Shown: positions 6,928 through 46,397, numbered from the stretch's first letter. The stretch is DNA of 64,000 bases from an uncultured Gammaproteobacteria bacterium (GCA_963710815.1 CAVQCA010000154.1:8750-72749); one strand, 5' to 3'. The notes: generated by a model from the letters alone, not told the origin. Program-made: numbers and translations.

Positions 6928-7562
6928 CCGGGGTCGCCGACGACATCCACATCCGGCGGCGGTACGAAGTGGAAAATGCCCTCGCCCACCGGGCCATTGC
7001 GCACCAGTTTGCTGAAGGTGAACGTGGTGCTGTTGCCGAATTTGTCCCTGGCTTCAATGCGCGAGAGCGTGCCTTTCGTAAAGAAGAGGCGGACATCAAC
7101 GACGTTACTGTCATCGTTCTTCGGCGTAAGCAGGACTTCCTGTTCACCGTCGGATGCGGGCTGTGCCTGCATCCGGAAGACCTTTTCAAGCGGCTCATTG
7201 CCGCTCAGCAGCATGGCGGGCGTGGCACTGAACACCTTGTCCATCGGCTGTACGCTGACCTGCGCCAGGTCTTCGTCATAGGACCAGAGGTGCTTTCCAT
7301 CCGCCACAAGCTGCTGTTTATAGGGTGTCCGGTAATTCCAGCGGAATCTTCCCGGCCGCAGGATCCAGACGTGGCCGTCGGACTCCTGTTGCACCTCGCC
7401 TTTGCTGGTGAGGACCTGCTGGTGGAAATCCGCCTCCAGGGTATGCAGGTCCGTGAAGAAGGCATGAACGGTATCCATGGCGCTGCCCGCGAGGACCTGC
7501 GGACTCGCCAGAAGACAAGCCGCGAGCGCGAGAAAACGCGGCAAATGCCACAGTCTGCGCAT
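6924..7562 (-). CDS. lolA: Outer-membrane lipoprotein chaperone LolA
   Basis: Signal peptide, [24 protein letters not shown]-terminal F-x-F-x-PP-x-xDV; sits between ftsK and rarA. Confidence 0.95.
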
Positions 7563-9868
7563 CAGGCATCAACCGGCGGTGGCGCCAGCACCTCGCGACT
7601 GCCGTTGGATTGCGCCGGGCCGACGACCCCGGTTTGCTCCATGTGTTCGATCATGCGGGCGGCGCGGTTGTAACCGATCTTGAGGCGGCGCTGCACGCCC
7701 GAAATCGAGGCACGCCGGGTTTCGGTCACGATGGACACAGCCTGGTCATACAGGGGATCCGACTCCGTGTCATCGCCTCCTCCCTCGTCGCCTGCCAGTC
7801 CGGGTACCGCGTCGGAGGATGACTCGAGGATCTCCGTCATGTAATCCGGTTCGGACCGACCCTTGAGGTGGCCGACCACCTTGTGCACTTCCTGATCGGA
7901 GACGAATGCGCCATGCACGCGCACCGGCACGGAAGTCCCGGGCATCATGTAAAGCATGTCGCCATGTCCGAGCAAGGCCTCGGCGCCCATCTGGTCGAGG
8001 ATGGTGCGCGAATCCACCTTGGCCGAGACCTGAAAGGCAATGCGGGTCGGGATATTGGCCTTGATCAGGCCGGTGATGACATCCACCGAGGGCCGCTGGG
8101 TCGCGAGGATCAGGTGTACGCCGGAAGCGCGCGCCTTCTGCGCCAGCCGCGCGATGAGTTCCTCCACCTTCTTGCCGACGACCATCATCATGTCGGCCAG
8201 TTCATCGACGATGATCACGATAAAGGGCAGTGGCTGCAGCACCGGGTGCTCGGTGCCCTCCAGCATCTCTTCGGGAATGAACAACGGATCGGGGATCGGT
8301 TCGCCCGCCTCTTCGGCGTCTTTCACCTTGCGGTTGTAATTGGCGATATTACGCACACCCAGCGCCGCCATCAGCTTGTAGCGGCGTTCCATTTCACCGA
8401 CGCACCAGCGCAAGGCGTTGGCGGCTTCCTTCATGTCGGTCACTACCGGGGTCAGCAGGTGGGGAATGCCTTCATAGATGGACAACTCGAGCATTTTCGG
8501 ATCGATCATGATGAGCCGGACGTCTTTCGGCAGCGTCTTGTAGAGCAGGCTGAGAATCATCGCATTGATGGCGACGGACTTGCCGGAGCCGGTTGTACCG
8601 GCAACCAGCAGGTGCGGCATCCGTGCGAGATCGGCCACCACCGGCTGCCCGCCAATATCCTTGCCCAGGGCCAGCGTCAGCGGCGAGTGCGAGCTGTCGT
8701 ATTCCTCCGAGCTCAGAATCTCGCTCAGGCTGATGATGTCGCGGTGTTCATTGGGTATCTCGAGCCCGATGACCGATTTTCCGGGAATGACCTCCACGAT
8801 ACGCACGCTGATCGCCGACAGCGCGCGCGCGATGTCCTTGGCGAGGTTGGACACCTGGCTGACCTTCACCCCGGCGCCCAGATCGAGTTCGAAGCGCGTG
8901 ATGACCGGACCGGGGTGAACTTCCACCACCTGCACCTCGATGTTGAAATCCAGCAGCTTCATCTCCACGAGGCGCGACATGGCCTCCAGTGCCGACGGCG
9001 AGTACCCCTCCCCCGACGGTCGCGGCGGATCGAGCAATGACAGGGGCGGCAACTCGGTATTCGGTGGCGGATCGAACAACGGCACCTGCCGCTCACGCTC
9101 CTGGCGTTCACTTCTCTGGACCGGCTTGATCACCGGTTCGATGCGCGGCGGCTTGCGGTTGGCGGTTTTTTCCTGAATGGTCCGCACGTGCTCCTGGCGC
9201 TGCCGCTGCGCCCGCCAGCCGGCGATATATTCCGGCAGCCGACCGGCCATGGCATAGACATTGTCCGCCGCGAGGAGAAAGTATTTTCCGGTAAAATCCA
9301 TGACCGAGAGCCAGGACAGACCGGTAAACAGCGTGACCCCGGTGAGAAACAGGGCCAGCAGGAACAGGTTAGCGCCCACCGGACTGAACAGGCCTGCCAG
9401 GCCCGAGCCCACCACACTGCCGAGTACGCCTCCGGCGCCGGCCGGCAATGCCCCCGAGGACAACCCGAATTCCAGCGCGGCCAGCCCGCAGCCGGCGCCC
9501 ACCGTCAACAGGAATCCGGACCAGCGAATCGCCAGGATATGCAGATCGATCCCGCCGCCGGGTGAACGCCCCCTGAAGACCAGCCAGCCGCTGTAGGCGA
9601 GCATGACGGGCAGCAGGTAGGCGAGGTAACCGAGGAGGTACAGCAATATGTCCGCCAGCCAGGCGCCGACCACACCGCCGGAATTGCGAATACCGTGAAG
9701 CGTGCCGCTGTGTGACCAGCCCGGATCGAGTGAGTAATAACTGGCCAGGGACACTAGCAGATAAATACCCAGCGTGCCGAGTATGAGCAGCGCCGCCTCG
9801 CGCAAGCCCCGTGTGACATGATGAGCCAGCCTGCCTTTCTCTTCCTTTTTGCGTCGTGCCTGAGCCAA
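7562..9868 (-). CDS. ftsK: DNA translocase FtsK
   Basis: N-terminal 4TM domain, [36 protein letters not shown], gamma domain IGYNRAAR. Confidence 0.98.
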
Positions 9869-9921
9869 AATAATCCTCTTTAGTAACTATATGGGCCAAT
9901 GCGCTAATTTAATTGTCTTTA

Positions 9922-10995
9922 CTATATCAGGCAAACATTTCTTTCAGCGCTGGATGCACCATCTTCACCGGCTTCGACATTGATTCCCCGGGTCAACGCT
10001 TTGCAAGTTTTCCAGTCCGGTCGTGCCATGGCGAGCACATAGGGCAGTAAGGCGGCCGACAGGACCTGTGAAGCGGTCCTGGGTACGGCGCCCGGCATGT
10101 TCGTAACTGCGAAATGGATGATGCCGTCCACCTCATAGGTCGGATTTTCGTAAGTGGTCGGCCGTGTGGTCTCCACGCACCCCCCCTGATCGACGGCGAT
10201 GTCGATGACCACGCCGCCGGCTTGCATTTGGCCGATCATCCGACGCGTAACGACGTGCGGCGCCCGGGCGCCGGTCTTCAGCACGGCACCAATCACGAGG
10301 TCTGCCCGGCCCACTTCGCGCGCCACCGCGTCCGCATAGGGATACAGGCCGGTCACATTGTCACCCAAGGCGCGCATCGCCGCCAGCCGGTCACGGTTGA
10401 TATCGAAGACCACCACTTCCGCACCGGCCGCGGCAGCGAGTATCGCGGCACTGCCGCCTGCGGTTCCGGCGCCGATGATCACCACGCGCCCGCGTTCGGC
10501 AGCTGGCAGGCCGCCCAGGAGCAGACCCTTGCCGCCTTGCGGCTGATGCAGGAGACAGGTCCCAACCTGAGTGGCGATGCGCCCGGCGATATCGCTCATC
10601 GGCGCAAGCAGCGGCAGGCGGCCCGCGTCATCCTCGACGGTTTCGAACGCCACCGCGGTCAGACCGATCTCCCGCAGCCGGCGACCCAGATCCGGTTCCG
10701 CGGCCAGATGGAGAAAGGAAAACAGCAGGTGTCCCCTGCCGAGCAGCGCCAGCTCGCTGGCCTGGGGTTCCTTGACCTTGAGGATCAGTTGCGCACCCGC
10801 GTAGACCTCCGCGGGTCCGCGCACTATAGTGACCCCGATGGCGGAATAATCTTCATCGCGGTAACCGGACAGGATGCCGGCGCCCTGTTCCAGGAGGAGG
10901 GTGTGGCCGGCATCGAGCAACGGTCCGCAGGCTTCGGGTATCAGCGCGACCCGCCCCTCCCTGGGTTTGATCTCTCGGGGAATTCCTATGCGCAT
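9922..10995 (-). CDS. ald: Alanine dehydrogenase (last ~13 residues probably frameshifted)
   Basis: MRIGIPREIK start at 10995, KVKEP, LLAPMSDIAGR, DIAVDQGGCVET, FAVTNMPGAVP. A one-base shift at ~9964 gives a more canonical end, MVHPALKEMFA* (TGA 9927-9929). Confidence 0.93.
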   Translation of the reverse strand: MRIGIPREIKPREGRVALIPEACGPLLDAGHTLLLEQGAGILSGYRDEDYSAIGVTIVRGPAEVYAGAQLILKVKEPQASELALLGRGHLLFSFLHLAAEPDLGRRLREIGLTAVAFETVEDDAGRLPLLAPMSDIAGRIATQVGTCLLHQPQGGKGLLLGGLPAAERGRVVIIGAGTAGGSAAILAAAAGAEVVVFDINRDRLAAMRALGDNVTGLYPYADAVAREVGRADLVIGAVLKTGARAPHVVTRRMIGQMQAGGVVIDIAVDQGGCVETTRPTTYENPTYEVDGIIHFAVTNMPGAVPRTASQVLSAALLPYVLAMARPDWKTCKALTRGINVEAGEDGASSAERNVCLI

Positions 10996-11155
10996 GCTTG
11001 CTTTACCCTGCCTTCCAACTTTCGTACCATAACCCGTGGCCTTCCATGCGTCCTGTCGAGCCGTTCCGTGCAGTTGACTGCGACTGCAATCCCCGCCGAC
11101 CTTCAGATAATGCAACGCCTGTTCGTCAGCGGCACTGTCGATCCAAAGGGAGTAA

Positions 11156-12118
<963 letters not shown>

Positions 12119-12262
12119 ACGGCGGCGGGGGACTCTCGCCGCGCACGGCCGCCCGCCATCGTCCGCAGCCCCGGGCGACGTTCACGGGCCAGGCTTCACC
12201 GGACGCGAATCATCCCGCGGCGCCGCGGGTCACAACCACGATTTTGCACGCCGCTCCTGAGC

Positions 12263-13417
12263 ATGCGTACCGAAGTCATTACACGGCTGGCGGATATTCC
12301 CGCGGATGAGTGGAATCGGGTAACGGGCACCGCCAACCCGTTTCTGCGCCACGAGTTCCTGGCGGCCCTTGAACGCCACAATTGCGTCGGCGAGGCCTTC
12401 GGGTGGTATCCGCAGCACATCGCGGTATTCGATGACACCGGCGCGCTCGCTGGCGTCGCGCCCATGTACCTCAAGGACAATTCCTACGGTGAATTCGTCT
12501 TCGACTGGTCATGGGCCGATGCCTGCCACCGCGCCGGCAAGCCCTATTACCCGAAGCTGGTCTCCGCCATACCGTATACCCCCGTCACCGGACCGCGCCT
12601 GCTGGTCAGGGACGATGCCGATCCCGCAAATGTCAGGGGTCTTCTCATCGACACGGCGCTCATGCTGGCAAGGCAAACGCACTGCTCGTCCCTGCACTGG
12701 TTGTTTACCGACGCCGGGGACACCGGGACCCTGCTCGGTCACCACTTCATGCGCCGCACCGGCTGCCATTTCCACTGGCATGACCAGGGCTACCATTCCT
12801 TCGAGGATTTCCTCTCCCGTCTGAATTCACGCAAGCGCAAGCAGATCAGGCGCGAACGGCGTTATGTCGAGGAGGCCGGCATCCGCATGCAGATCATCCA
12901 TGGCCACGAGGCCGGTGAATCGCTGTGGCGGATCATGCACGAGTTCTACCGCTCCACCTTCGAGAAAAAATCCGGCATTCCGACTCTCTCGCTGGAATTC
13001 TTTCTCGATATCAGCCGCAGCATGGGCGAGCAGATCGTGCTGGTATTCGCCTGGCAGGGCGCGCAGGCGGTTGCCGGCGCCATCAACCTGCGTGGCGACA
13101 AGGCGCTCTACGGCCGGCACTGGGGCTGCAGCGGGTACTATCACAGCCTGCATTTCGAGGCCTGTTACTACCAGGGTATCGAGTACTGCATCGAAAACCG
13201 GCTGAACCTGTTCGAACCGGGCGCCCAGGGCGAGCACAAGATCATCCGCGGTTTCCTGCCGACCCTGACCTGGTCGACGCACTGGATCGAGGACCCGCGT
13301 TTCCGCCAGGCGGTCGCACAATTTCTCGTCAGGGAGCATGAATCGGTGCTTGAGTATCGGGATGAAATGCAGCGTTATTCTCCGTACCGCGAACCCGCGC
13401 CGGGGACCGATGCATGA
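12263..13417 (+). CDS. DUF482 / FemAB-like GNAT-fold protein of unknown function
   Basis: [66 protein letters not shown]. Confidence 0.9.
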
Positions 13418-14145
13418 CGACGCTGCGTGGCGCTGCTCCCTTCTGGCTGGATCCCGACAATACGGACATCGATTTTCCGGACGTGGAGCTGGCGCTGAAA
13501 GAACCCGATGGCCTGCTCGCCATCGGCGGAGATCTTTCTCCGGCGCGCCTGCTCAGCGCGTATGCCAATGGCATTTTTCCCTGGTATGGTCCCGGTCAAC
13601 CGATCCTCTGGTGGTCGCCGGATCCACGCCTCATCCTGCGGCCCGGGTCACTGCGCATCTCCCGCAGCCTGCGGAAGACGCTGAGAAGACGCGTCTTCAG
13701 GGTGACCCTGGACGAAGCCTTCGATGCGGTCATCGGCCACTGTGCCGGACCACGCGCCAATGCGAGCGGCACCTGGATAACTCCCGAAATAACGGCGGGC
13801 TACCTGGATCTTCACCGGCGGGGATACGCCCACTCGGTCGAGTGCTGGCACGGTGACCGGCTTGCCGGCGGCCTCTACGGCGTGTCGATCGGACGTATAT
13901 TTTTCGGGGAATCGATGTTCGCGCACATCAGCGACGCCTCGAAGGTCGCATTGGTGCATCTGGCGGGGCAATTGAATCGCTGGGGGTTTCCCCTGCTCGA
14001 TTGCCAGGTCCATACCCGGCATCTCGAGAGCCTGGGCGCCGTGTCCCTTCCCCGAAAGGAGTTCATCCGGCTACTGCGTTCGGCATCCGCACTGCCATCC
14101 CCGCCCTCACCCTGGCGATTCGACCCGGATATGGCGCTTTTCTGA
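13414..14145 (+). CDS. aat: Leucyl/phenylalanyl-tRNA--protein transferase
   Basis: [53 protein letters not shown]. Confidence 0.97.
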
Positions 14146-14170
14146 TCCTGTCCCCGCCGGGGCAAGGTTT

Positions 14171-14199
14171 TTCTCATCCCCGGGCCTTCCGTGTATAAT
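14171..14199 (+). promoter_or_regulatory. Putative sigma70 promoter for infA
   Basis: TTCTCA-17 nt-TATAAT, 42 nt upstream of the infA ATG. Confidence 0.5.
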
Positions 14200-14241
14200 G
14201 CAGCGCCAATTCGCCTATCAGGAGTGGTTAAAACCGGTTTT

Positions 14242-14460
14242 ATGTCAAAGGAAGAACAAATTGAAATGGAAGGGACGGTGGTCGAGACGCTGCCCAACAC
14301 CATGTTCCGCGTCCAGCTGGAAAACGGGCACGTGGTAACCGCGCACATTTCGGGGAAGATGAGGAAACACTACATCCGGATCCTGCGGGGAGACAAGGTG
14401 ACCGTCGAGATGACACCCTATGATCTGAGCAAGGCGCGGATTACCTACCGCGCGCGCTGA
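14242..14460 (+). CDS. infA: Translation initiation factor IF-1
   Basis: [30 protein letters not shown]...[15 protein letters not shown]; 72 aa. Confidence 0.98.
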
Positions 14461-14483
14461 AGCCCCGCATCAGCGCGCGGCAC

Positions 14484-16739
14484 TCAGTGCACACATTCCT
14501 TCTCCTCGACTTCAAAGACCAGGCCGCCGTCCTCTTCATGGATCGCCAGGTGGCCGCCATGCGACAGCCGTCCAAAGAGTAACTCCTCGGCCAGCGGCTT
14601 CTTGATGTGCTGCTGGATGAGGCGCGCCATGGGCCGTGCGCCCATCTTCGGGTCGTAACCGTGCAGGGCAAGCCACTTGCGGGCGGCCTCGTCGACTTCG
14701 ACGGTCACCTGCTGTTCCTGCAGCTGCGCCTCGAGCTCGAAGATGAATTTGTCCACCACCTGCGTGATGACCGCCGGATCGAGGGCATTGAACTGCACGA
14801 TGGCATCCAGGCGATTACGGAACTCGGGGGTGAACAGGCGGCGGATGACCTCCATTCCGTCGGAGGAATGGTCCTGCTGCGTGAACCCGATCGAGGGCCG
14901 GTTCATTTCCTGCGCACCGGCGTTCGTCGTCATGACCAGCACGACGTTTCTGAAATCCGCCTTGCGCCCGTTGTTGTCGGTCAGCGTGCCATGGTCCATG
15001 ACCTGGAGCAGCAGATTGAAGACATCGGGATGCGCCTTCTCGATTTCATCGAGGAGCAGAACGACATGGGGGTTTTTGCTGATGGCCTCGGTGAGCAGGC
15101 CGCCCTGGTCGTAGCCGACATATCCCGGCGGTGCACCGATCAGGCGCGACACCGTGTGGCGCTCCATGTACTCCGACATGTCGAAGCGCACCAGTTCCAT
15201 CCCCATGATGCGTGCCAGCTGCCGGGTCACCTCGGTCTTGCCGACGCCGGTGGGACCCGCGAACAGGAACGAGCCGATTGGCTTGTGTTCCGCGCCCAGA
15301 CCGGAACGTGACATCTTGATGGCCGAAGCCAGGGTATCAATGGCATTGTCCTGGCCGTACACCACCATCTTCAGGTCCCGCTCCAGGCTGCGCAGGGTCT
15401 CCTTGTCGGAAACGGTCACGGTCTTGGTGGGAATGCGCGCCATCTGGGCGATGATGGTTTCAATCTCGCCGACGCCGATGATCTTGCGACGGCGTGAAGG
15501 CGCGTTCAGGCGCTGGCTGGCCCCGGCCTCGTCGATGACGTCCAGGGCCTTGTCCGGCAAATGACGGTCATTGATGTAACGATCCGACAGCTCGGCGGCC
15601 GCCCGCAGGGCGCGCGCCGAATATTTCACATTGTGGTGCTCCTCGAACCGCGCACGCAGCCCTTTCAGGATCTCGACGGTTTCATCGACGCTGGGTTCGC
15701 TGATGTCGATCTTCTGGAACCGCCGTGACAGGGCGTGGTCCTTCTCGAAGATGCCGCGGTATTCCTGATAGGTGGTGGAACCGATGCACTTCAACTCGCC
15801 GGATGCGAGCATGGGCTTGATCAGGTTGGAGGCATCCATCACCCCCCCCGAGGCCGCACCGGCGCCGATGATGGTGTGGATCTCGTCGATGAACAGGATC
15901 GCGCCCTCCTCACGACGCAGCTGCGCCAGCACCGATTTCAGGCGTTTCTCGAAATCACCGCGATACTTCGTCCCGGCGACCAGCGTACCGAGATCGAGTG
16001 AATAGATGGTGCTCCCGAGCAGCACCTCAGGCACATCGCCCTCGACGATCATCTTTGCCAGCCCCTCGGCGATGGCCGTCTTCCCCACCCCCGCCTCGCC
16101 GACAAACAACGGGTTGTTCTTGCGCCGGCGGCAGAGTATCTGCACGGTGCGGCGGATCTCGGGGCGACGCCCGATCAGCGGGTCGATCTTCCCCTGGGCG
16201 GCGAGCTCGTTGAGGTTGGTCGCGAAATTCTCCAGCGGCTGTTTTTGCCCGCCCTCGGTGGCGGCCCCGGGCCCCGGGGCGTCGATACTGTCGTCTCCCT
16301 GTTCGTGCACCTTGGAGATTCCGTGCGAGATATAGTTGACGACATCCAGCCGGGTGATATTCATCCTGTTCAGAAAGTAAACCGCCTGGGACTCCTGCTC
16401 GCTGAAGATGGCAACCAGCACGTTGGCGCCGGTAACCTCATTCTTGTCGGAAGTCTGTACGTGGAAGACCGCGCGCTGCAGCACCCGTTGAAAGCCGAGG
16501 GTGGGTTGTGTCTCCCGGGTGTCTCCCGTGGCCAGGCGCGGTGTGGTCTCGTCCAGGAACTTGCCGAGATCCTGCTTCAGGCGCTCCAGATCGGCCCCGC
16601 AGGCGCGCAGGACCTCAACGGCGGATGGATTGTCAAGGAGGGCGTAGAGCAGGTGCTCGACCGTCATGAATTCGTGCTGCTTCTCCCGGGCCTCCTTGAA
16701 GGCGAGGTTCAGGGTGAATTCCAGTTCCTTGCTCAGCAT
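14484..16739 (-). CDS. clpA: ATP-dependent Clp protease ATP-binding subunit ClpA
   Basis: [11 protein letters not shown], two AAA modules ([16 protein letters not shown]), [10 protein letters not shown]. Confidence 0.98.
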
Positions 16740-22077: not shown

Positions 22078-22194
22078 CTCACCGCAAAGACGCAAAGTGT
22101 TTAATTGTTTTCATAAAAGAATTTCTCTGCGTCCTTTGCGTCTTTGCGTTGAAGGCGGTGTTTATGGACGGATACCTTGCGCCTTTGCGGTGAA
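22078..22194. repeat. Palindromic repeat family B (CGCAAAGACGCAAAG...CTTTGCGTCTTTGCG)
   Basis: ~98 nt highly similar to 31371-31468, followed by an extra half-site CTTGCGCCTTTGCGGTGA. Confidence 0.9.
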
Positions 22195-27553: not shown

Positions 27554-28108
27554 ATGACCGAGTCAAAACACCGCGACGCCGTGCAAAAAGCGGCGCAACT
27601 CACGATCGATGACCTGCGGCTGGGGGAAACCACCCTGGAATTCGAGGTTGAAACCCAAGCCGAGGTGCGCGCGGTGGCGCATGCGCTGGCTGCCCAGGCG
27701 CAGCGCACCCTGCTGCTGCATACCGAGGACCTCGAACCCGCCATCTACGACGACAACGCCTTTCTGGATGCGCTCAGCCGTCTTGCCCGTCTGCACAGCC
27801 AGTCGCGCATCTGGATTCTTGTCCAGGATGCCCGCAAGGCCATACAGCACGGCCATCGCCTGATCGAGCTTGCCCGGCGCCTGAGTTCCAGCGTGCAGTT
27901 TCGCCGGCCCGGAGCCCAGTTCCGCAACTACCACGAATCATTCCTGCTGGCGGATGGCCGTGGGTATCTGCATCGCCCGATCGCCGCACGCTACGAAGGC
28001 ACCGCCAATTTCCACGATCCCGGCAAGGTGGCGGATCGGGAGAAATACTTCATGGAGGTCTGGGATCGCAGTGAACCCGATGAAGAAATAAAGCGCCTGT
28101 ATCTGTAG
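27554..28108 (+). CDS. Conserved hypothetical protein (typical downstream partner of the purB-linked GNAT)
   Basis: Host-like codon usage; DLEPAIYD, GHRLIELARRLSS, FLLADGRGYL, F.E.W motifs; function unknown. Confidence 0.75.
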   Translation: MTESKHRDAVQKAAQLTIDDLRLGETTLEFEVETQAEVRAVAHALAAQAQRTLLLHTEDLEPAIYDDNAFLDALSRLARLHSQSRIWILVQDARKAIQHGHRLIELARRLSSSVQFRRPGAQFRNYHESFLLADGRGYLHRPIAARYEGTANFHDPGKVADREKYFMEVWDRSEPDEEIKRLYL

Positions 28109-28143: not shown

Positions 28144-28653
28144 TCAGGGGAAGGCCGGGATGACCGGCTCGGTGCCCTCGACCACGGCCTCCGGATGGTG
28201 CGCCTTGACCAGGTTCGTGATTTCCTCCACCCGCACCTTGGGCACGTCCACCATCATCATCAGCTGACCCTTTTCGATCGCCGATTCGAATTCCTTCAAC
28301 CGTGAGCTGGGTGCCGAAACGCCGATCATGCCGGAGATCCAGGCGCCGGCGCCGGCTCCCGCCAGGCCAATGCCGAGAATCGCGCCGCCCGCCAGCGCCA
28401 CACCCCCGAGGGTGATCGCGGCGATGCCCGCCACCACACCGGTCGCCCCGCCGATCGCGAGACCCCGCTCCACCGCCGGGACGAAATCGCTTTCCTGCAG
28501 CAGATTCGCTTCCGGCAAGTGGGCTTCCGACAAGGCGTGATGATCGGCAGCGGCGATATGGATATGGCGTTCCTCGATCCGGGCGAGCAGCAGTTCATCC
28601 ACGATCGTTTTTGCGCTTTCTACGCTCGGCAGCAGAAAATAAAGTCTCCTCAT
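28144..28653 (-). CDS. DUF1269-like membrane protein
   Basis: MRRLYFLLP, HLPEANLLQESD, glycine-rich hydrophobic stretch, IEKGQLMMMVDVP. Confidence 0.8.
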   Translation of the reverse strand: MRRLYFLLPSVESAKTIVDELLLARIEERHIHIAAADHHALSEAHLPEANLLQESDFVPAVERGLAIGGATGVVAGIAAITLGGVALAGGAILGIGLAGAGAGAWISGMIGVSAPSSRLKEFESAIEKGQLMMMVDVPKVRVEEITNLVKAHHPEAVVEGTEPVIPAFP

Positions 28654-28806: not shown

Positions 28807-29460
28807 CTAACCGGCCGTAGCAGTATTGCCGGAGGCAAGCGTTATTCTGATCGATTCCGGCAGGTTGTGAAAGTCTTCCGGGGTATCGACGTCGCTGTGC
28901 TCACGGAGGCGCAGCCAGTCCAGCGCCAGCCGCTGCAGGCGTGTGGAGGTCTCCCGTAACACATCCGGGCCACCCCAGGGCATATGCTCGAACAACCGCC
29001 GGTCCGCGTGCCGCACACCGATCAGATAGTAACCGCCGTCGGTGGCCGGCCCCACGACGACGTCCTTGCCGTACTGCAACGCCTGCAATGCCGCTTCGAG
29101 GTCCGCCGCCTCGAGCGACGGTATGTCGGTGCCGACAAGCACCGCCGATTCCGCCCGGTCCAGGGCCGCCGCCAGGGCGGCGTACATACGTTCGCCGAGA
29201 TCGCCCGGCACCTGTTCATAGAGTCCGATATCGTAGCGTTCTCGGCAAGACTCGAAGAAGGGATCATGAGATGACGGCGCGCACCACAACTCGACCGGAC
29301 ACAAACCGGCGCGCGTCACGGTATCCAGACAGCGGTGTATCAGGCGGGCATGGAGGTCGGCCGCGCCCTGCGCGCCAAGCCGGGGAATCAGCCGGGTCTT
29401 GACCTCGCCCGCGCGCGGCGCGCGGGCGAAGACCAGCAGGCGTGACGCCGGACAGGTCAT
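28807..29460 (-). CDS. TIGR04282/DUF2064-type glycosyltransferase (arsenosugar cluster)
   Basis: LLVFARAPRAGEVKTRL, GDLGERM, VLVGTDIP, GPATDGGYYLIG, DVDTPED; ATG overlaps the GT2 stop. Confidence 0.9.
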   Translation of the reverse strand: MTCPASRLLVFARAPRAGEVKTRLIPRLGAQGAADLHARLIHRCLDTVTRAGLCPVELWCAPSSHDPFFESCRERYDIGLYEQVPGDLGERMYAALAAALDRAESAVLVGTDIPSLEAADLEAALQALQYGKDVVVGPATDGGYYLIGVRHADRRLFEHMPWGGPDVLRETSTRLQRLALDWLRLREHSDVDTPEDFHNLPESIRITLASGNTATAG

Positions 29461-30167
29461 TGCCGGTTCGGCGGGTAGTGCCGCGCCAGCCGCATCGGCG
29501 AAACCCCGAGGAAATAGGCCAGGCGCAGCGACCACATGAGGACAATGGTGCGCACCGTCCCGTGACGCTGCCAGCGGCGCGCCGAGGTGATCAGACATTC
29601 GCGCAGGCAGACCGGCCGGGAGTGGCTTCTCAGGCGGCGGCTGAACGCGATGTCCTCCATCAGCGGCATCTGCGGGAAACCGCCAACGCAGTCGAACAGT
29701 TCGCGGGTTACGAAGATGCCCTGGTCACCGGTGGCGATCCGGGTCAGGCGGGAACGCAGGTTCATGAGTGTCGCGACGACAGCGAGCAACACCCCGGGCT
29801 CGGAGAAACGCACGTCAAACCGTCCCCATCGACGATCACCCCCGCGAAGCGCGGCATGGATGGCGCGGTCCGCTTTCCGGGGCGCCCGCGTATCGGCATG
29901 CAGAAACCACAGCACCGATCCCCGCGCCAGCGCCGCGCCGGCCTGCATCTGTCTGGCGCGGCCGGCAACGGTCGTGAGGACCCTGTCGGCAAGCGGTGCG
30001 CACAACGCCGCCGTATTGTCGCTGCTGCCGCCGTCGACGATGATGATCTCGTGGCCACGACGGCGCATCGCCTGCAAGGCCTGCAGCGTCTCCTTGATGC
30101 CGCCGGCCTCGTTGAGCGCCGGGACGATGATGGAAATGACCCCCGTTTCAGCAGCAGCAACCGTCAT
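29457..30167 (-). CDS. TIGR04283-type GT2 glycosyltransferase (arsenosugar cluster)
   Basis: ISIIVPALNEA, VDGGSSD, GRARQM, FLHADT, GDQGIF, PLMED, TSARRW. Confidence 0.9.
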   Translation of the reverse strand: MTVAAAETGVISIIVPALNEAGGIKETLQALQAMRRRGHEIIIVDGGSSDNTAALCAPLADRVLTTVAGRARQMQAGAALARGSVLWFLHADTRAPRKADRAIHAALRGGDRRWGRFDVRFSEPGVLLAVVATLMNLRSRLTRIATGDQGIFVTRELFDCVGGFPQMPLMEDIAFSRRLRSHSRPVCLRECLITSARRWQRHGTVRTIVLMWSLRLAYFLGVSPMRLARHYPPNRQ

Positions 30168-31257
30168 GGCCGGCATTGAGCGCGTCGTTTGACGCACTGT
30201 CGATGACCTGCACGGCGGGCGCGCGGCAGGTTGCCGCGGCGCCGGGCAGCCCCGCCTGTAGATCGATAAATGCGCCCCGGTAGGCGGCGTCCGTCAACTC
30301 GGCATGCCGTACCGCGGTGACGCGGCTGCGTTCGCCGCGCGTATGACGCTGACCCGCGTCATCGATGACCGCGGCAAAGGGCCCCCGGTAGATGAGGTAG
30401 CGGTCCTCCGCACCCGACGCCGCCCCCGTTCCCTTGCATGCGGTCAGCGTTACCGAGCGGAACTCGATACCCTCAATCACGCGCCAGGGTTGCGCCTCCC
30501 ACTTGTCATAGCTCACGGCGTGAAATCCGTTGTCGGCGAATGTCCGCAGAAATTCGTTCTCCTGGAATGCGCCGGAGATGCAGCCGCTCCATAATTCGGC
30601 ATCCTGCTTCAGCGTCGCCGGCACCGGGCGGTCGCTGACGATATCCGAGACCGCCACCCGCCCGCCCGGCCTGAGCACGCGAAAGATTTCCTGCACCAGT
30701 TGTTCCTTCTCGTCATCGGAAACCAGGTTCAGCACGCAATTCGAGATCACCAGGTCGACGGAGGCATCCGCGATCAGGGGCCGCTCCCGCCGCTGACTCG
30801 CCTCCCATGCCTTGAGTTCGGCGTAGGCCTGCCGGTCTCCGACCGGATGCTGGCGCAGGTAATGGTCGAGGGCGTCGACATCCAGTGCAAGATCCTGGAT
30901 ATAGCCCTTCAGGAACCGTACGCGGTCACCACCGAGTTTTCCGGCCATATCGGACTGGTGCCTGCGCGCCAGGGCCAGCATGTCGTCATTCATGTCCACC
31001 CCGATGACCTGACCGTGCGGCCCGACCAGTTGCGCCGCCATGTAGCAGATCTTGCCGCCGCCGCTGCCGAGATCGAGCACCACATCGCCCTCCCGTACAT
31101 AACGTGACGGGTCGCCGCAGCCGTAATCCCTGGCGATGATCTCCTCCGGCAGCAGCGCCAGCAGGCCGGTATCGTAGTCCACCGGGCAGCACAACGCCTC
31201 CTGCCGTTCGCGCGCGCCCTGGCTATAGCGTTCCTTTACGGTGTTTTCGATGTTCAT
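30148..31257 (-). CDS. arsM: Arsenite S-adenosylmethionine methyltransferase (ArsM-like) with C-terminal extension
   Basis: LCCP, YGCGDP, SAM motif LDLGSGGG, SNCVLNL, WSGCISGA give the four Cys positions expected of ArsM; ends in CCC. Confidence 0.85.
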   Translation of the reverse strand: MNIENTVKERYSQGARERQEALCCPVDYDTGLLALLPEEIIARDYGCGDPSRYVREGDVVLDLGSGGGKICYMAAQLVGPHGQVIGVDMNDDMLALARRHQSDMAGKLGGDRVRFLKGYIQDLALDVDALDHYLRQHPVGDRQAYAELKAWEASQRRERPLIADASVDLVISNCVLNLVSDDEKEQLVQEIFRVLRPGGRVAVSDIVSDRPVPATLKQDAELWSGCISGAFQENEFLRTFADNGFHAVSYDKWEAQPWRVIEGIEFRSVTLTACKGTGAASGAEDRYLIYRGPFAAVIDDAGQRHTRGERSRVTAVRHAELTDAAYRGAFIDLQAGLPGAAATCRAPAVQVIDSASNDALNAGHDGCCC

Positions 31258-31298
31258 TGCGATACCTCACCCCGTCTGAAGATTTCATTTGTTATCGA

Positions 31299-31496
31299 AT
31301 GGCCACGGAAGCACACGGAAATACACGGAATCATTTCATTGTAATTCGTGTTCATTCACAAATGAATAAACTCACCGCAAAGACGCAAAGTGTTTTATTG
31401 TTTTTGATAAAGAATTTCTCTGCGTTCTTTGCGTCTTTGCGGTGAAAATGGTGTTTATGGACGGACACTAATTATTCCGTGTGCTTCCGTGGCCAT
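31299..31496. repeat. Nested palindromic element: outer 22-bp inverted repeats enclosing a family B copy
   Basis: ATGGCCACGGAAGCACACGGAA (31299-31320) / TTCCGTGTGCTTCCGTGGCCAT (31475-31496), perfect. Inner TCACCGCAAAGACGCAAAG (31372-31390) / CTTTGCGTCTTTGCGGTGA (31427-31445), perfect. Confidence 0.92.
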
Positions 31497-31526
31497 AATA
31501 ACGAGCAGTCACGATCTCCATGACAA

Positions 31527-32492
31527 TCAACCGGCCAGCGCGCCGCCGCAGCTCGAGCCCTGGCCCGCGGTACAGGCGTAGCAGTGGTCGGCCACCCGGA
31601 TGGGGTTGCCGTTCAGATCCTTGCCGCCGAGGCGGGAAATATGGGTTTTCGCGGCACCGTCGATCGGCGCGGCCAGACCGAGCATCTGGTTGAAATCGCA
31701 GTCGTAGGCGTAGCCTTCCCAGTCGATGCTGAGCAGTGTGCGGCACATGACGCCGGCGAGATTCTCGTCGCGGTGCGCGGCGCGCAGCAGGTCCATGTAG
31801 CCGGCAAACTCTCCACGGGAGACCAGCATGCTGCCGAAGCGATTGATCGGTACATTGGCCAGCGTCAACAGGTGATTGAACACGATGCGGTGGTGTACCT
31901 CCAGGTAGTTGCGGTAGTCGCGCTCCAGGTCCGGCTGTGGCGGGGGCAGCACGGGGCCCTGCGGGTTGTAGACCAGGTTGAGGATCAGGCCGGTGTCGGA
32001 GCGGCCGTAACCCAGCCGGTTGAGCAGACGCAGGGCCTTGAGACTGTCCTCGTAGACTCCCTCGCCACGCTGCGCATCTACATTTCCCTTTATATAACAA
32101 GGCAATGACGCAACTATCTCGACTTTATTATCGGCAAGAAATTCGGCGGTATCCTCCTGCCCCGGCTCCAGCAGCACGGTCAGGTTGCAACGATCGATCA
32201 CCCGCAGGCCCCGGCTGCACGCGGCGCTTACCAGGCGCCGGAAACCGGGATTGAGCTCCGGGGCGCCGCCGGTCAGGTCAAGCGCGAGGATGTCGGCGGC
32301 GACCAGGTAGCGAATGACCTCGTCCACGGTCCCTGCGCCCATCATCTCCTTGCGTGTGGGGCCTGCATTGACGTGGCAATGCAGGCAGGACTGGTTGCAG
32401 CGATACCCCAGATTGACCTGCAGCGTTTCCAGCCGGGCGCGTCGAATGGCGGGAAAAGCGCTGTCCAGCAGTAATGGCAAGGTCGCATGCAT
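31527..32492 (-). CDS. arsS: Arsenosugar biosynthesis radical SAM protein (TIGR04167, DUF3641)
   Basis: LQVNLGYRCNQSCLHC (CxxxCxxC), LDLTGGAPEL, LNLVYNP, DCDFNQML, C-terminal HCYACTAGQGSSCGG. Confidence 0.92.
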   Translation of the reverse strand: MHATLPLLLDSAFPAIRRARLETLQVNLGYRCNQSCLHCHVNAGPTRKEMMGAGTVDEVIRYLVAADILALDLTGGAPELNPGFRRLVSAACSRGLRVIDRCNLTVLLEPGQEDTAEFLADNKVEIVASLPCYIKGNVDAQRGEGVYEDSLKALRLLNRLGYGRSDTGLILNLVYNPQGPVLPPPQPDLERDYRNYLEVHHRIVFNHLLTLANVPINRFGSMLVSRGEFAGYMDLLRAAHRDENLAGVMCRTLLSIDWEGYAYDCDFNQMLGLAAPIDGAAKTHISRLGGKDLNGNPIRVADHCYACTAGQGSSCGGALAG

Positions 32493-32523
32493 GGGTCGCT
32501 ATTCTACCAGTCCCGCCCGGATC

Positions 32524-33939
32524 TCATGGCAGCAGGCGGTTGATCAGTCGGGCCAGCAGGCGCACCCTGCCGGAAAAGAGTCGAGGCGCATAGCTGGCAT
32601 TGATCGCGCGCCGGTGGATCTGTGAAAGTGTCGGATAGGCGTGGATCAGGCGGCTGATGTCCCCTGCCTTCGCCTTGACCTGTATCGCCAGTGCCAGTTC
32701 ATGGATCAGCTCGCCGGCATGCGCGCCGACGAGGCTCGTCCCCGCCACCCGGCCGCGGACAAGCAGTATCTTGAGAAACCCCTCACCGACGTCATCCGTG
32801 ATGGCGCGGTCGATCTCGCTGAACGGAAAGCGCGCGACGCTGTAGCGCAGCCCCTGCGTCTGCGCCTGCTGCTCGGTCAGGCCGACCTCCGCGACCTCGG
32901 GGTCGGTATAGGTGACACGCGGGATCACCCGGTAATCGACCTTCCGGGGAATCCTGAACAGCAGGCTGGCAAGCACGATGCCGGCCTGGTACTCGGCCAT
33001 GTGCGTGAACTGGTAAGGCCCGCAGACGTCACCGATGGCGAAAATATGCGGCTGGCGGGTACGCAGGCGTGCATCGACCACCACCGCTTTGGTGTTGTGC
33101 TCCACCCCGGCCTCGTCGAGCCCGAGTCCGAAGACGGCAGGGCGGCGTCCGGCGGCCACGAGTATGCGTTCGCACTCGACACTCTCACCGTTGGTGAGAA
33201 ACAGCTGACGGCTGTCGCCGTCGCGCCGGGCACTCTCCACCTGGCAGGACAGGTGCAGGGTGATGCCCTCATCCTCCAGCACCTGGCGAAGCACGGCGGA
33301 GGCCTCGCTGTCGGCCACGGGCAGAATCCGCTCGGCGGCCTCGACGATCGTTACCCGGCTGCCCAGCCGGGCAAATGCCTGCGCCAGTTCGACGCCGATC
33401 GGTCCGCCGCCGATGACGGCCAGTCGGGGAGGCAGTTCCCGACGTTTGAAGATGGTCTCGTTGGTGTCATAACCCGCCTCGGCGATGCCCGGAATCGGCG
33501 GAACAACCGGCTGCGATCCGGTCGCGATCACGAAACGTTTGGCCCGGATGACCTCCTCATTGACGGTGACCTCTTGGGGATTGAGAAACCGGGCTGCGCC
33601 GAAGCGTACATCACAACCGTAGCGGCGAAAGCGCTCGGGGTCGTCATGCTGCTGGATATGGTCGATGACGCTGTCGACCCGGTCCAGCACCCGGTTGATG
33701 TCGATTTCCGGGGCGCAGGCGGTCAGACCGACCCGTGCGGCCCGGCGCATCCGGTGCGCGAGCCGTGCGGTATTGATGAGCGTCTTGCTGGGTACACAGC
33801 CGCTGTGCAGGCAATCGCCGCCGAGGCGTTCCGATTTCTCGATCAGCGTCACGCGCAGGCCCAGCTGCCCGGCAACGCTCGCGATGACCAGACCGCCCGG
33901 ACCGCCGCCGATCACCACCACGTCCTGTTTCCTGCTCAC
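32524..33939 (-). CDS. Pyridine nucleotide-disulfide oxidoreductase (dihydrolipoamide dehydrogenase/MerA-like family)
   Basis: GGGPGG FAD site, GGDCLHSGCVPSK, GGGPIGVELAQ, HAYPTL; no HMA domain and no C-terminal Cys-Cys. Confidence 0.88.
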   Translation of the reverse strand: MSRKQDVVVIGGGPGGLVIASVAGQLGLRVTLIEKSERLGGDCLHSGCVPSKTLINTARLAHRMRRAARVGLTACAPEIDINRVLDRVDSVIDHIQQHDDPERFRRYGCDVRFGAARFLNPQEVTVNEEVIRAKRFVIATGSQPVVPPIPGIAEAGYDTNETIFKRRELPPRLAVIGGGPIGVELAQAFARLGSRVTIVEAAERILPVADSEASAVLRQVLEDEGITLHLSCQVESARRDGDSRQLFLTNGESVECERILVAAGRRPAVFGLGLDEAGVEHNTKAVVVDARLRTRQPHIFAIGDVCGPYQFTHMAEYQAGIVLASLLFRIPRKVDYRVIPRVTYTDPEVAEVGLTEQQAQTQGLRYSVARFPFSEIDRAITDDVGEGFLKILLVRGRVAGTSLVGAHAGELIHELALAIQVKAKAGDISRLIHAYPTLSQIHRRAINASYAPRLFSGRVRLLARLINRLLP

Positions 33940-34803
33940 GGGCCTCTCCCTTTTTCACGCCGGTCCCAGTCGCGGCGGTTGATGGCGTACTCGCCCAGTT
34001 TGCCGATCAACGGCATACCCAGCATGCCGCGCAGGGTGACGCAGTGCGCGGCATCGCGAAAGGTGTCGATGCCGATCACCATGCCTTCATGTCCCTCCTC
34101 CGGCTGCTCCCGGTAGGTGCCGAACAGCCGGTCCCAGACCGAGAGGTTGAAACCGAAGTTGCTGTTCGTTTCATGGCCGAGGTGCGAGTGATGCACGCGG
34201 TGCATGTCAGGCGTCACGATCAGCCAGCGCAGCAGGGCATCGAGAACGGCGGGCAGACGCACATTGCTGTGATTGAACATGGCGGTGGCATTCAGCAACA
34301 CCTCGAACACCACGACGGCGACGATCGGCGGCCCCAGCAGCACGATGACGGCGAACTTGATGAGCATGGAAAGCAGGATTTCGACCGGGTGAAACCGCGA
34401 ACCGGTGGTGACGTCGAAATCGAGGTCGGCATGATGCACGCGGTGCAGGCGCCAGAACAGGGGCACGGCGTGGAACATGACATGCTGCAGGTAGATGGCC
34501 GCGTCCAGGATGATCACCGAGGCGGACAGCGCCAGCCAGGCGGGTGCTTCGACCCGGTTGAACAGTCCCCAGCCGTTGAGTTCGGCGGAGACCGCCACAC
34601 CCACCGCCGCCAGCGGAAATATCAGCCGTCAGCAGCGCCGTATTGAACACCACCAGTCCAAGGTTATTCAGCCAGCGCTGCTTTTTCGACTGCGACAGCC
34701 GACGGCGCGGCACCAGCAGTTCCCACACGGCCATAACGGCGAATACCCCGAAAAAGCATGAGAGGCGGATGGCCGGTTCGTGATTCAGGATGAAGTCATT
34801 CAT
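33936..34803 (-). pseudogene. Sterol desaturase / fatty-acid hydroxylase family protein, +1 frameshift at ~34629 (real or sequencing error)
   Basis: The frames join as ...NTALL|RLIFPLAAVGVA...; His boxes HVMFH, HRVHH and HRVHH; total span 868 nt = 3n+1. Confidence 0.85.
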
Positions 34804-37605: not shown

Positions 37606-37690
37606 TTCAACGCAAAGACGCAAAGATTCCTGATTATTTCTAGCAATGAATTTCTTTGCGTTCTTTGCGTCTTTGCGTCTTTGCGGTTAA
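37606..37690. repeat. Palindromic repeat family B, third copy
   Basis: AACGCAAAGACGCAAAG ... CTTTGCGTTCTTTGCGTCTTTGCGTCTTTGCGGTT. Confidence 0.85.
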
Positions 37691-45073: not shown

Positions 45074-45814
45074 TCAGTCCTGCGCCAATACACGTTCGAG
45101 CAGCGCCCTGACCTGCCGCATGGCATGCCGGAGGTTGAGCTCGATCTCGCCCATTTCGATGATCCCCTCGCCGCGTCCCGCGGCCCAGTTGGCGCAGACC
45201 GCACAGTGGGCGTAGCACAGGCCGAGTTCCCGGGCGAGCGCGGCCTCCGGCATGCCGGTCATGCCCGCCATATCGCAGCCGTCGCGCGCCATGCGATCGA
45301 CCTCCGCGGCCGATTCCAGGCGCGGACCCTGGGTCGCCCCGTAGGTGCCGCGCGGGATGAGCGCGATGCCGGCCGCGGCGGCGGCCGTGATCAGGACGCC
45401 GCGCAGGTCCTCGCAATAGGGACGGGTGAAATCGACGTGGGTGACATGGCTGAGCCCGGTATCGAAGAAGGTATGCTCCCGCGACCAGGTGTAGTCGATG
45501 ATCTGGTCCGGTACGGCAAGCGCGCGCGGCGGCATGTCCCTGCCGATGCCGCCCACGGCGCAAACGGCGAGGATGCGCGCGACGCCGGCTTCCTTCAGGG
45601 CCCAGAGGTTGGCGCGGTAATTCACCCGGTGCGGCGGGATGGTGTGCGCATCGCCGTGGCGCGCGAGAAACACGACCTCGGCCCCGCCTAGCCTGCCGAA
45701 GGTGAGCGCCGCGGAAGGTTCGCCGTAGGGGGTGCGTGGAGTCTCGCGCCGCACGATCTCGAGGTTCTGCAGCGCGGTCAGACCGGTGCCGCCGATGATC
45801 GCGAGATCGACCAT
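45074..45814 (-). CDS. S-methyl-5'-thioinosine/thioadenosine phosphorylase
   Basis: AIIGGTG, TPYGEPS, FLARHG, PPHRVNYRAN, TQGPRLES, GMTGMPEA. Confidence 0.93.
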   Translation of the reverse strand: MVDLAIIGGTGLTALQNLEIVRRETPRTPYGEPSAALTFGRLGGAEVVFLARHGDAHTIPPHRVNYRANLWALKEAGVARILAVCAVGGIGRDMPPRALAVPDQIIDYTWSREHTFFDTGLSHVTHVDFTRPYCEDLRGVLITAAAAAGIALIPRGTYGATQGPRLESAAEVDRMARDGCDMAGMTGMPEAALARELGLCYAHCAVCANWAAGRGEGIIEMGEIELNLRHAMRQVRALLERVLAQD

Positions 45815-45818
45815 CCCG

Positions 45819-46397
45819 CTACCCCGCCTCTGCCCGGGCATGGTCTTCACCGAGGGTGAAGATGCCGTTGAGATTGCGCAGATAGCCCTTGTAGTCCATG
45901 CCGCAGCCGAACACGTAGCGATCCTCCACCGCCAGCCCGACGAAATCCGCCGTCATGCCGGCCACGCGCCGCTCATGCTGCTTCTCGACCAGGACGGCGG
46001 TATAGACGCGCGCCGCGCCGGCGTCACAGCAATACCCGCTGATGGCCTTCAGGGTATGACCTTCGTCGAGAATGTCATCGACCAGCAGGACGGTGCGCCC
46101 CTGCAATGACAGATGCGGCTTGCACAACCAGGCGATCTCACTGCCGCCGGTAGTTTTGCCGCGATAGCGCGTGGCGTGCAGGTAGTCGGTCTCCAGCGGG
46201 AAGTCCAGGCGGGTCAGCAGGTGCCCGGTCGGAATGATGCCGCCATTGAGGACACAGGTCACGACCGGCAGCGTGCCGTCGAGCGCCGCCGTGATCGCGC
46301 CCGCCATGCGGTCGAGGGCCGCGGTGACCGCTTCGGGGCCGTGCAGTATGACGGCCTCGTCCCGGATTTCCCTCAGTGTCACGTCTGTCAGCGTCAT
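45819..46397 (-). CDS. Hypoxanthine-guanine phosphoribosyltransferase
   Basis: CVLNGG, HATRYRG, PRPP site VLLVDDILDEGHT, YVFGCGMDYKG. Confidence 0.92.
   Translation of the reverse strand: MTLTDVTLREIRDEAVILHGPEAVTAALDRMAGAITAALDGTLPVVTCVLNGGIIPTGHLLTRLDFPLETDYLHATRYRGKTTGGSEIAWLCKPHLSLQGRTVLLVDDILDEGHTLKAISGYCCDAGAARVYTAVLVEKQHERRVAGMTADFVGLAVEDRYVFGCGMDYKGYLRNLNGIFTLGEDHARAEAG

Follow-up and report, generated by a model that had tools for sequence, protein, structure and literature searches.

Background

In cyanobacteria, ArsM yields methylated trivalent arsenic, and the ArsM and ArsS reactions have been demonstrated, as for the arsM-arsS pair of Synechocystis sp. PCC 6803 (Xue et al. 2019; Cheng et al. 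2021, as cited in PMC8552651, PMC12159101, PMC13598754 and bioRxiv 10.1101/2022.09.23.509062). The conversion of dimethylarsenite to 5'-deoxy-5'-dimethylarsinoyl-adenosine by ArsS is an activity known only for the cyanobacterial enzyme (PMC13598754), and for the completion of arsenosugars and arsenolipids after ArsS, reviews only propose a nucleosidase step followed by glycosidation (PMC10456119). Here we analyze a six-gene cluster centred on arsS, located on the minus strand at positions 28807-34803 of a 64,000-nucleotide stretch of DNA (hereafter the window) from an uncultured Gammaproteobacteria bacterium (GCA_963710815.1 CAVQCA010000154.1:8750-72749). With a probability of roughly 0.6, we consider this locus to be a chromosomal operon for an arsenosugar-type organoarsenical, and a variant of a widespread cluster that combines ArsS with members of the TIGR04283 and TIGR04282 families.

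A comparable sequence of reactions occurs in hopanoid biosynthesis, where the radical S-adenosylmethionine (SAM) enzyme HpnH adds a 5'-deoxyadenosyl group and HpnG, a member of the purine-nucleoside-phosphorylase family, strips the adenine to leave a ribosyl derivative. RefSeq genomes in turn contain neighbourhoods in which ArsS (TIGR04167) is found together with a TIGR04283 glycosyltransferase (GT2) and a TIGR04282 protein (DUF2064), most commonly in the order arsS-(DedA-reductase)-(DUF547)-GT2-DUF2064-(DUF3047). Finally, in the arsinothricin cluster arsQML of Burkholderia gladioli, C-As bond formation falls to a radical SAM enzyme that is paired with an enzyme of ArsM type (PMC8552651).

Results and discussion

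Organization and conservation of the operon

The cluster comprises six co-oriented open reading frames (ORFs) which encode, from first to last, a hydroxylase (33936-34803), a disulfide reductase of 471 aa (32524-33939), ArsS of 321 aa (31527-32492), an ArsM-superfamily SAM methyltransferase of 369 aa (30148-31257), a GT2 glycosyltransferase of GT-A fold and 236 aa (29457-30167), and a DUF2064 protein of 217 aa (28807-29460). Direct reading of the junctions identified a GTGA overlap (33936-33939) between the hydroxylase stop and the reductase start, a 31-nt gap between the reductase gene and arsS, a 269-nt gap between arsS and the methyltransferase gene, a 20-nt overlap between the methyltransferase stop and the GT2 start, and an ATGA overlap (29457-29460) between the GT2 stop and the DUF2064 start. 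The ATG at 30167 gives a GT2 of orthologue length, an alternative GTG start being present at 30197, and a ribosome-binding-like GGTGAGG lies upstream of the methyltransferase start. The layout in the initial annotation, with its overlaps and gaps, was accurate in every detail, and the junctions display operon-style coupling; the six-gene locus is a real operon centred on ArsS. An Rfam scan of the entire window returned no riboswitch or known RNA near the cluster, and promoter and terminator consensus scans performed no better than on shuffled sequence.

At least 10 related gammaproteobacterial contigs (L001, L002, L004, L005, L009, L012, L087, L088, L089, and L090) carry the operon in a single chromosomal slot, which lies downstream of dusA and is bounded on its other side by a conserved gene of 169-171 aa, amid housekeeping genes. 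Given that identical gene order recurs in an identical slot in independent contigs, the arrangement is not due to chance. The order hydroxylase-reductase-ArsS-methyltransferase-GT2-DUF2064 is found in L001, L002, L005, and, in partial form, L090, and is supplemented by a DedA/VTT gene after the hydroxylase in L004, L088, and L089. The hydroxylase is missing from L009 and L087, and both hydroxylase and reductase from L012. L006 has no hydroxylase and its methyltransferase is reduced to a 69-aa ORF (L006:8987-9196) that matches the Cys-rich C-terminal tail only, the rest being deleted, which points to loss of accessory genes within the shared slot.

Ratios of nonsynonymous to synonymous substitution rates (dN/dS) of 0.07-0.29 against orthologues place all six genes under purifying selection, as do those of the flanking housekeeping genes for aconitase and adenylosuccinate lyase (0.10-0.17). 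Of the species-representative genomes among the matches listed, the nearest is a metagenome-assembled genome from an uncultured gammaproteobacterium, with 87% ArsS identity.

ArsS, GT2 and DUF2064 proteins

Assignment of the cluster to the arsenosugar type is carried by three proteins that exceed the cut-offs of their curated families. ArsS scores 433 bits against TIGR04167 (cut-off 300), covering model positions 2-303 of 303 and passing the equivalog cut-off, and is composed of a radical SAM domain (PF04055) and a C-terminal Cys-rich DUF3641 domain (PF12345, 170.5 bits). Its CX3CX2C motif (C32, C36, C39) is invariant in the alignment, as are C-terminal cysteines C250, C265, C304, C307, and C315, and it lacks selenocysteine. 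A sequence search of solved structures gave no match for ArsS. GT2 (PF00535) scores 283 bits against TIGR04283 (cut-off 182), and among 62 cluster-linked homologues, conservation of its DGGSxD, HxD, TGDQ, MED, and RRW motifs is 95% or higher. It is important to note that the "arsenosugar" name of TIGR04283 rests on gene association. The DUF2064 protein (PF09837) scores 200.5 bits against TIGR04282 (cut-off 134; model type "hypoth_equivalog"), with a weaker match to CofC, and matches PDB 3CGX, a "putative nucleotide-diphospho-sugar transferase", at E = 2.6e-21. Conservation of its GxxKxRL, GxDxP, DGGY, and DxD motifs in 55 homologues is in keeping with a predicted nucleotidyltransferase-type fold resembling CofC and MobA.

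The initial annotation had thus correctly recognized an ArsS-centred cluster of arsenosugar type in a gammaproteobacterium, in which an ArsM-like methyltransferase accompanies the TIGR04283/TIGR04282 pair. Its description of the locus as the strongest candidate for an undescribed system must be withdrawn, since "arsenosugar biosynthesis" is already the NCBIfam label of three of the six families, and public annotation applies it to this cluster type in hundreds of bacteria, including RefSeq records of B. glumae, Acinetobacter portensis, and Ca. Thiodictyon. The cluster is a lineage-specific variant of a known, biochemically unfinished pathway, and what it adds is modest: an operon form restricted to this lineage, which includes a hydroxylase and an ArsM of uncurated clade, and the nomination of enzymes for the late steps.

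ArsM-like methyltransferase and the preceding spacer

The best curated model for the methyltransferase is the arsinothricin ArsM (NF040538; 355 bits over residues 18-334, cut-off 500), followed by canonical ArsM (NF008823; 193 bits, cut-off 263). A cyanobacterial-type ArsM, as implied by the initial annotation, is not what the window encodes, the score against the cyanobacterial arsenosugar ArsM (NF038099) being 106 bits for a cut-off of 400. The protein nevertheless aligns to CmArsM structures over the positions of Cys72, Cys174, and Cys224 (YGCG, SNCV, and GC(I/L)(S/G)GA), its C23, C24, C47, C174, and C226 do not vary across 16 members of its clade, and its C-terminal tail is Cys-rich, the first C-terminal CC pair being TC in the window. 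It belongs to an ArsM-superfamily clade that lies outside all curated models and keeps the As(III)-binding cysteines. Members of the clade carry only the NCBI name "methyltransferase domain-containing protein" and, in the contexts examined, were found only within this cluster.

The spacer that separates arsS from the methyltransferase gene (31258-31526) is occupied by a nested inverted-repeat element of approximately 200 nt (31299-31496), with 22-nt perfect terminal inverted repeats (TTCCGTGTGCTTCCGTGGCCAT) and an inner 19-nt perfect inverted repeat belonging to a hairpin family based on TCACCGCAAAGACGCAAAG. Copies of the inner-repeat family are present elsewhere in the window (22079-22193 and 37607-37689) and in related genomes, and orthologous spacers measure 134 nt in L001 and 189 nt in L002 and are replaced by a 4-nt overlap in L005. 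The element is an insertion resembling a miniature inverted-repeat transposable element (MITE), outside the pathway. Small repeats of the MITE or repetitive extragenic palindromic type are dispersed between genes both here and in related genomes (L005:5637-5658, L005:2881-2895, and L009:10030-10044).

Disulfide reductase

The reductase is a class I FAD/NAD(P)H pyridine-nucleotide disulfide reductase with Pyr_redox_2 and Pyr_redox_dim matches. Its best NCBIfam match is NF004991 (489 bits, cut-off 620), and its redox pair C43-x4-C48 and its H433-x-Y-P-T motif are conserved in 48 cluster-linked homologues. Having failed the thresholds of both the lipoamide dehydrogenase and the MerA models, it is best described as a protein that resembles dihydrolipoamide dehydrogenase and MerA and is neither. 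Mercury resistance through MerA can be rejected, given that the score against TIGR02053 is 362 bits (cut-off 454) and the C-terminus contains a His-bearing HAYPTLSQ motif in place of the MerA-type Cys pair. Since the reductase tracks ArsS rather than the methyltransferase, accompanying ArsS with or without it, and since some clusters contain thioredoxin and CcdA, thiol-disulfide maintenance is the most economical role; the reductase most likely keeps thiols reduced, whether on enzymes or on the arsenical.

Hydroxylase and its frameshift

The first gene encodes a membrane di-iron enzyme of the fatty-acid-hydroxylase/sterol-desaturase family (PF04116, 101.8 bits), with all three His boxes (HxxxH, HxxHH, and HxxHH) conserved. 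Its only curated relative is OlsE, an ornithine lipid hydroxylase whose model it matches at 90 bits for a cut-off of 475; OlsE identity was therefore rejected, leaving PF04116 superfamily membership, and a sequence search of solved structures gave no match.

As the initial annotation implied, the frame is broken. DNA alignment with three orthologues and one contig of ~96% identity reveals one extra base at 34629/34630, a +1 frameshift that puts the first 58 codons (34803-34630) out of frame with the 230 that follow (34628-33936), while intact 288-aa hydroxylases of 97-98% identity read NTALLRLIFPLAAVG across the site. The position does not fall within a homopolymer. Programmed frameshifting was rejected, there being no slippery run and the orthologues being collinear in a single frame. 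Given the intact close relatives, a dN/dS of 0.07-0.22 for both halves, and the fact that this is the sole frame split among ~16 orthologous genes compared over 18 kb, the frameshift is either a recent change or an assembly error, which sequence alone cannot distinguish.

Distribution of ArsS loci and their partners

Scanning one genome per species by pattern returned at least ~600 ArsS relatives. Neighbours were detected by targeted tblastn with thresholds, which divergent genes can escape, and were counted on the 54 proteobacterial loci with enough flank. GT2 (46/54) and DUF2064 (43/54) were the most frequent partners of ArsS, followed by the disulfide reductase (36/54), DedA/VTT proteins (32/54), DUF3047 (13/54), and DUF547 (11/54), with the window-type methyltransferase present in six, the hydroxylase in five, and an MTA (methylthioadenosine)-phosphorylase-family gene in four of the 54 loci and in more of the shorter ones. 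These counts define an ArsS-GT2-DUF2064 core, often extended by DedA and the reductase, to which the methyltransferase and hydroxylase are lineage-specific add-ons.

The ArsM enzymes that lie beside ArsS differ by lineage, and include the window clade, members of NF038099 (549 bits, cut-off 400) and NF008823 (365 bits, cut-off 263), and a CmArsM-like group. MTA-phosphorylase-family genes adjoin arsS or GT2 in L043, L058, L061, L068, L075, L078, and L082, on B. glumae plasmids, and on an Acinetobacter plasmid. The hydroxylase is linked to arsS in three arrangements other than that of the window, in L065, in L074, and in L070 together with the Thiodictyon plasmid; on the latter (pTs417 of Ca. 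Thiodictyon syntrophicum), GT2, a sterol desaturase, arsS, and TIGR04282 are found.

Clusters of this type also travel on plasmids of cultured bacteria, as illustrated by A. portensis pJNE5-X3_NDM-1, which contains arsS, a DedA/reductase fusion, DUF547, TIGR04283, TIGR04282, a methyltransferase, a PiT transporter, and mtnP, the PiT phosphate transporter being a possible entry route for arsenate. The full cluster lies at positions 7001-14954 of this mobilizable plasmid (L094, NZ_CP096121.1), whose name indicates NDM-1. RefSeq annotates this cluster type on 49 Burkholderia plasmids, nearly all from B. glumae, and in the B. glumae plasmid examined the TIGR04283 glycosyltransferase adjoins an MTA phosphorylase, while arsS lies in the vicinity along with thioredoxin and CcdA. 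Further cultured carriers of the cluster are B. glumae BGR1, Microbulbifer rhizosphaerae CECT 8799, and Methylotetracoccus oryzae C50C1, the last with a methyltransferase of the window type at 57% identity.

Two further families were observed beside arsS, their hosts being Betaproteobacteria and Pseudomonas. One, of ~330 aa, is present in 16 loci (including L029:10872-11963 and L052:10956-11984) and has sub-threshold similarity to metallophosphoesterases; the other is a multi-pass membrane family of ~460 aa (L077:10986-12377, L083:11025-12416, and four more loci) with faint similarity to sodium:solute symporters. Neither passed a Pfam threshold.

Comparison with described systems

As in the cyanobacterial arsM-arsS pair, a TIGR04167 ArsS adjoins an ArsM-superfamily methyltransferase in the window; the window ArsS, however, is only ~42% identical to a cyanobacterial ArsS, the methyltransferase is of a different clade, and the host is a non-cyanobacterial gammaproteobacterium. 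A cyanobacterial plasmid provides a further parallel in that genes for a DedA/TVP38 protein and a MerA-like reductase, annotated as a "mercuric reductase" and 41% identical to that of the window, flank arsM-arsS. On the Pseudanabaena plasmid, no TIGR04282 or TIGR04283 gene is annotated within 7 kb of arsS, whereas the window operon has GT2, DUF2064, and the hydroxylase.

With the RefSeq neighbourhoods the window shares three families that pass their cut-offs, translational coupling of GT2 followed by DUF2064, and a reductase, the last being a frequent partner there. It differs from them in that the reductase lies upstream of arsS, DedA, DUF547, and DUF3047 are absent, a methyltransferase of uncurated clade separates arsS from GT2, and the hydroxylase comes first.

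Resemblance to the arsinothricin cluster is limited to the best curated model of the methyltransferase and to the fact that both systems combine an enzyme of ArsM type and a radical SAM enzyme responsible for C-As bond formation. The methyltransferase remains below that model's cut-off, and ArsS transfers 5'-deoxyadenosyl rather than 3-amino-3-carboxypropyl. The six genes include neither ArsL nor an ArsQ permease, the radical SAM gene being arsS, and an arsinothricin cluster was therefore rejected.

The hopanoid enzymes HpnH and HpnG offer a parallel of logic, namely adenosylation followed by deadenylation, into which the MTA-phosphorylase-family genes beside arsS in other lineages would fit. 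Their substrate is a triterpene rather than an arsenical, however, and the window cluster has no phosphorylase. To our knowledge, nucleotidyl transfer followed by glycosyl transfer has no counterpart in the hopanoid side-chain pathway.

Proposed biosynthetic route

That the pathway concerns arsenic is supported by the distinct ArsM clades found beside ArsS, the PiT transporter of the Acinetobacter plasmid, the DedA and reductase pair around arsM-arsS in a cyanobacterial plasmid, and the correspondence of the methyltransferase cysteines to the arsenic-binding residues of CmArsM. Combining family membership, motifs, and gene neighbourhoods, a five-step route can be proposed, in which (i) the ArsM-like methyltransferase would, judging from its motifs, methylate trivalent arsenic on its conserved cysteines, with arsenite or an already alkylated arsenical as possible substrate, (ii) ArsS, given its equivalog-level membership, would add the SAM-derived 5'-deoxyadenosyl radical to dimethylarsenite to form 5'-deoxy-5'-dimethylarsinoyl-adenosine, (iii) phosphorolysis would strip the purine to yield 5-deoxy-5-dimethylarsinoyl-ribose-1-phosphate, as suggested by the MTA phosphorylase genes that accompany arsS or GT2 elsewhere, (iv) the DUF2064 protein, judging from its fold family and motifs, would act as a nucleotidyltransferase that converts the sugar-1-phosphate into a nucleoside diphosphate (NDP)-sugar, and (v) GT2 may transfer the arsenoribosyl group to an acceptor. 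GT2 enzymes generally invert, phosphorolysis gives an alpha-1-phosphate, and natural arsenosugars are beta-ribosides. An alpha-linked NDP-sugar used by an inverting GT2 would accordingly yield a beta-riboside, as in natural arsenosugars.

The third step has no dedicated gene in the cluster and would have to be performed by a housekeeping enzyme. Within the window, a single candidate could act in trans to release the purine of the ArsS product, namely a housekeeping S-methyl-5'-thioinosine/adenosine phosphorylase on the minus strand (45074-45850; NF006599, 379 bits, cut-off 223), which is not a cluster member, lies ~10 kb away, and shares 37% identity with the MTA phosphorylase encoded beside arsS in Microbulbifer. 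With an adjacent HGPRT (hypoxanthine-guanine phosphoribosyltransferase) gene, it appears to form a housekeeping pair for the salvage of purines and methionine (45074-46397, minus strand). A complete route from arsenite, which the initial annotation attributed to the locus, is not borne out, because the cluster itself has no adenine-removing enzyme, whereas other lineages have an MTA phosphorylase by arsS, and the window contains only this housekeeping phosphorylase.

The hydroxylase, together with the DedA proteins of sister lineages, suggests that in this lineage a membrane lipid serves as the acceptor or is itself the product. Given the frameshift, the lipid step would be lost in this sequence unless the extra base is an assembly error. 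The "reduction" by the reductase and the "lipid-linked" product of the initial annotation were inferences that the present analysis does not support, the sole gene hinting at lipid being the frameshifted hydroxylase.

Alternative explanations

Several observations weigh against an arsenosugar-type product. Our literature search turned up neither a demonstrated product from a proteobacterial cluster of this kind nor any open-access account of what TIGR04282 or TIGR04283 enzymes catalyse. The cluster has no adenine-removing enzyme, the hydroxylase is frameshifted in this sequence, the methyltransferase falls below every curated ArsM threshold, and the spacer in front of its gene is highly structured (RNA fold of -106 kcal/mol, z = -9.5). 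In addition, the ArsS loci examined were the 80 most similar to the query and not a random sample; an ArsM-like gene lies within 10 kb in only about one fifth (roughly 19) of the 84 sampled loci; the ArsS family, whose NCBIfam name contains "(seleno)protein", includes selenoproteins and is among predicted selenoprotein families; and in relatives no ArsR or ars resistance genes are found within ~8 kb, the flanks being housekeeping.

The alternative that survives best, which we regard as possible while clearly less probable than the arsenosugar operon in general, is that the end product is a soluble arsenosugar or adenosyl-arsenical made for detoxification, the hydroxylase being an unrelated lipid neighbour and no arsenolipid being formed. 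The hydroxylase occurs in few ArsS clusters, is missing from the same-slot sister lineages L006, L009, L012, and L087, and is broken in the window. GT2 is a small GT-A domain of soluble type and counts among its weak relatives glucosyl-3-phosphoglycerate synthase, which is a small-molecule enzyme, and the phosphoesterase-like gene found with ArsS in 16 loci would fit a phospho-intermediate that is later dephosphorylated. The hydroxylase nevertheless lies beside arsS in at least three gene orders in distant taxa, including Hydrogenophilales and the Chromatiaceae plasmid, is translationally coupled to the reductase by the GTGA overlap, and is under purifying selection, and membrane proteins of the DedA family are frequent partners of the core.

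A second alternative, which we consider unlikely, is that the core cluster handles a non-arsenical compound, such as a selenium or sulfur analogue or a cofactor-like molecule derived from 5'-deoxyadenosyl, with arsenic as a side activity acquired through an added ArsM. The scarcity of ArsM-like genes near ArsS, from which it follows that arsenic methylation is not obligatory in the core, the selenoprotein association of the ArsS family, and the lack of arsenic regulators or resistance genes nearby are all in keeping with this explanation, and the nearest relatives of the two transferases are the cofactor enzymes CofC (F420) and MftF (mycofactocin). Selenite sensitivity has also been tied to a DedA protein. 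Conversely, several ArsM clades have been independently recruited beside ArsS, the As(III)-binding cysteines are kept in the window methyltransferase, ArsS is well over its equivalog cut-off, and the reductase/DedA module also flanks arsM-arsS on a plasmid of cyanobacteria, the group in which the ArsM and ArsS reactions are demonstrated.

It is more improbable still that the cluster is decaying in this genome and no longer a working unit, since the +1 frameshift outside any homopolymer, the MITE-like insert with its strong transcript structure, the TC that replaces a CC pair in the methyltransferase, and the decay of accessory genes in relatives such as L006 are set against remaining reading frames that are intact and of orthologous length, low dN/dS in every gene including both hydroxylase halves, a frameshift that stands alone among its orthologous neighbours and could be an assembly error, and a ribosome-binding-like site in front of the methyltransferase start.

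Implications for arsenosugar synthesis

If the arsenosugar reading is correct, the range of arsenosugar producers would extend far past the algae and cyanobacteria, and ideas on how arsenic cycles through soils and sediments would change. A broader proposal, which we put forward tentatively and hold to be less probable than its negation, is that non-phototrophic Proteobacteria with such clusters are unrecognised producers of arsenosugars or arsenolipids whose clusters encode the late steps: an MTA-phosphorylase-type enzyme would generate 5-deoxy-5-dimethylarsinoyl-ribose-1-phosphate, DUF2064 would serve as an NTP (nucleoside triphosphate):arsenoribose-1-phosphate nucleotidyltransferase, arsenoribosyl transfer with inversion would fall to the TIGR04283 GT2, and in this lineage the hydroxylase and DedA might guide the sugar onto a membrane lipid or across it. 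The comparison thereby offers MTA phosphorylase, the DUF2064 nucleotidyltransferase, and GT2 as testable late-step candidates, all of which occur in cultured, tractable bacteria. The window's own contribution is a lineage-specific variant only, with one of its genes broken.

Genes adjoining the cluster

Directly 3' of the cluster in every relative is a gene (28144-28653, minus strand) for a Gly-rich predicted membrane protein of 169 aa, which has no Pfam or NCBIfam match and is the most conserved of the region (78-94% identity, dN/dS ~0.05). Further downstream, on the opposite strand, a DUF7931-family gene (27554-28108, plus strand) is kept in nearly all relatives.

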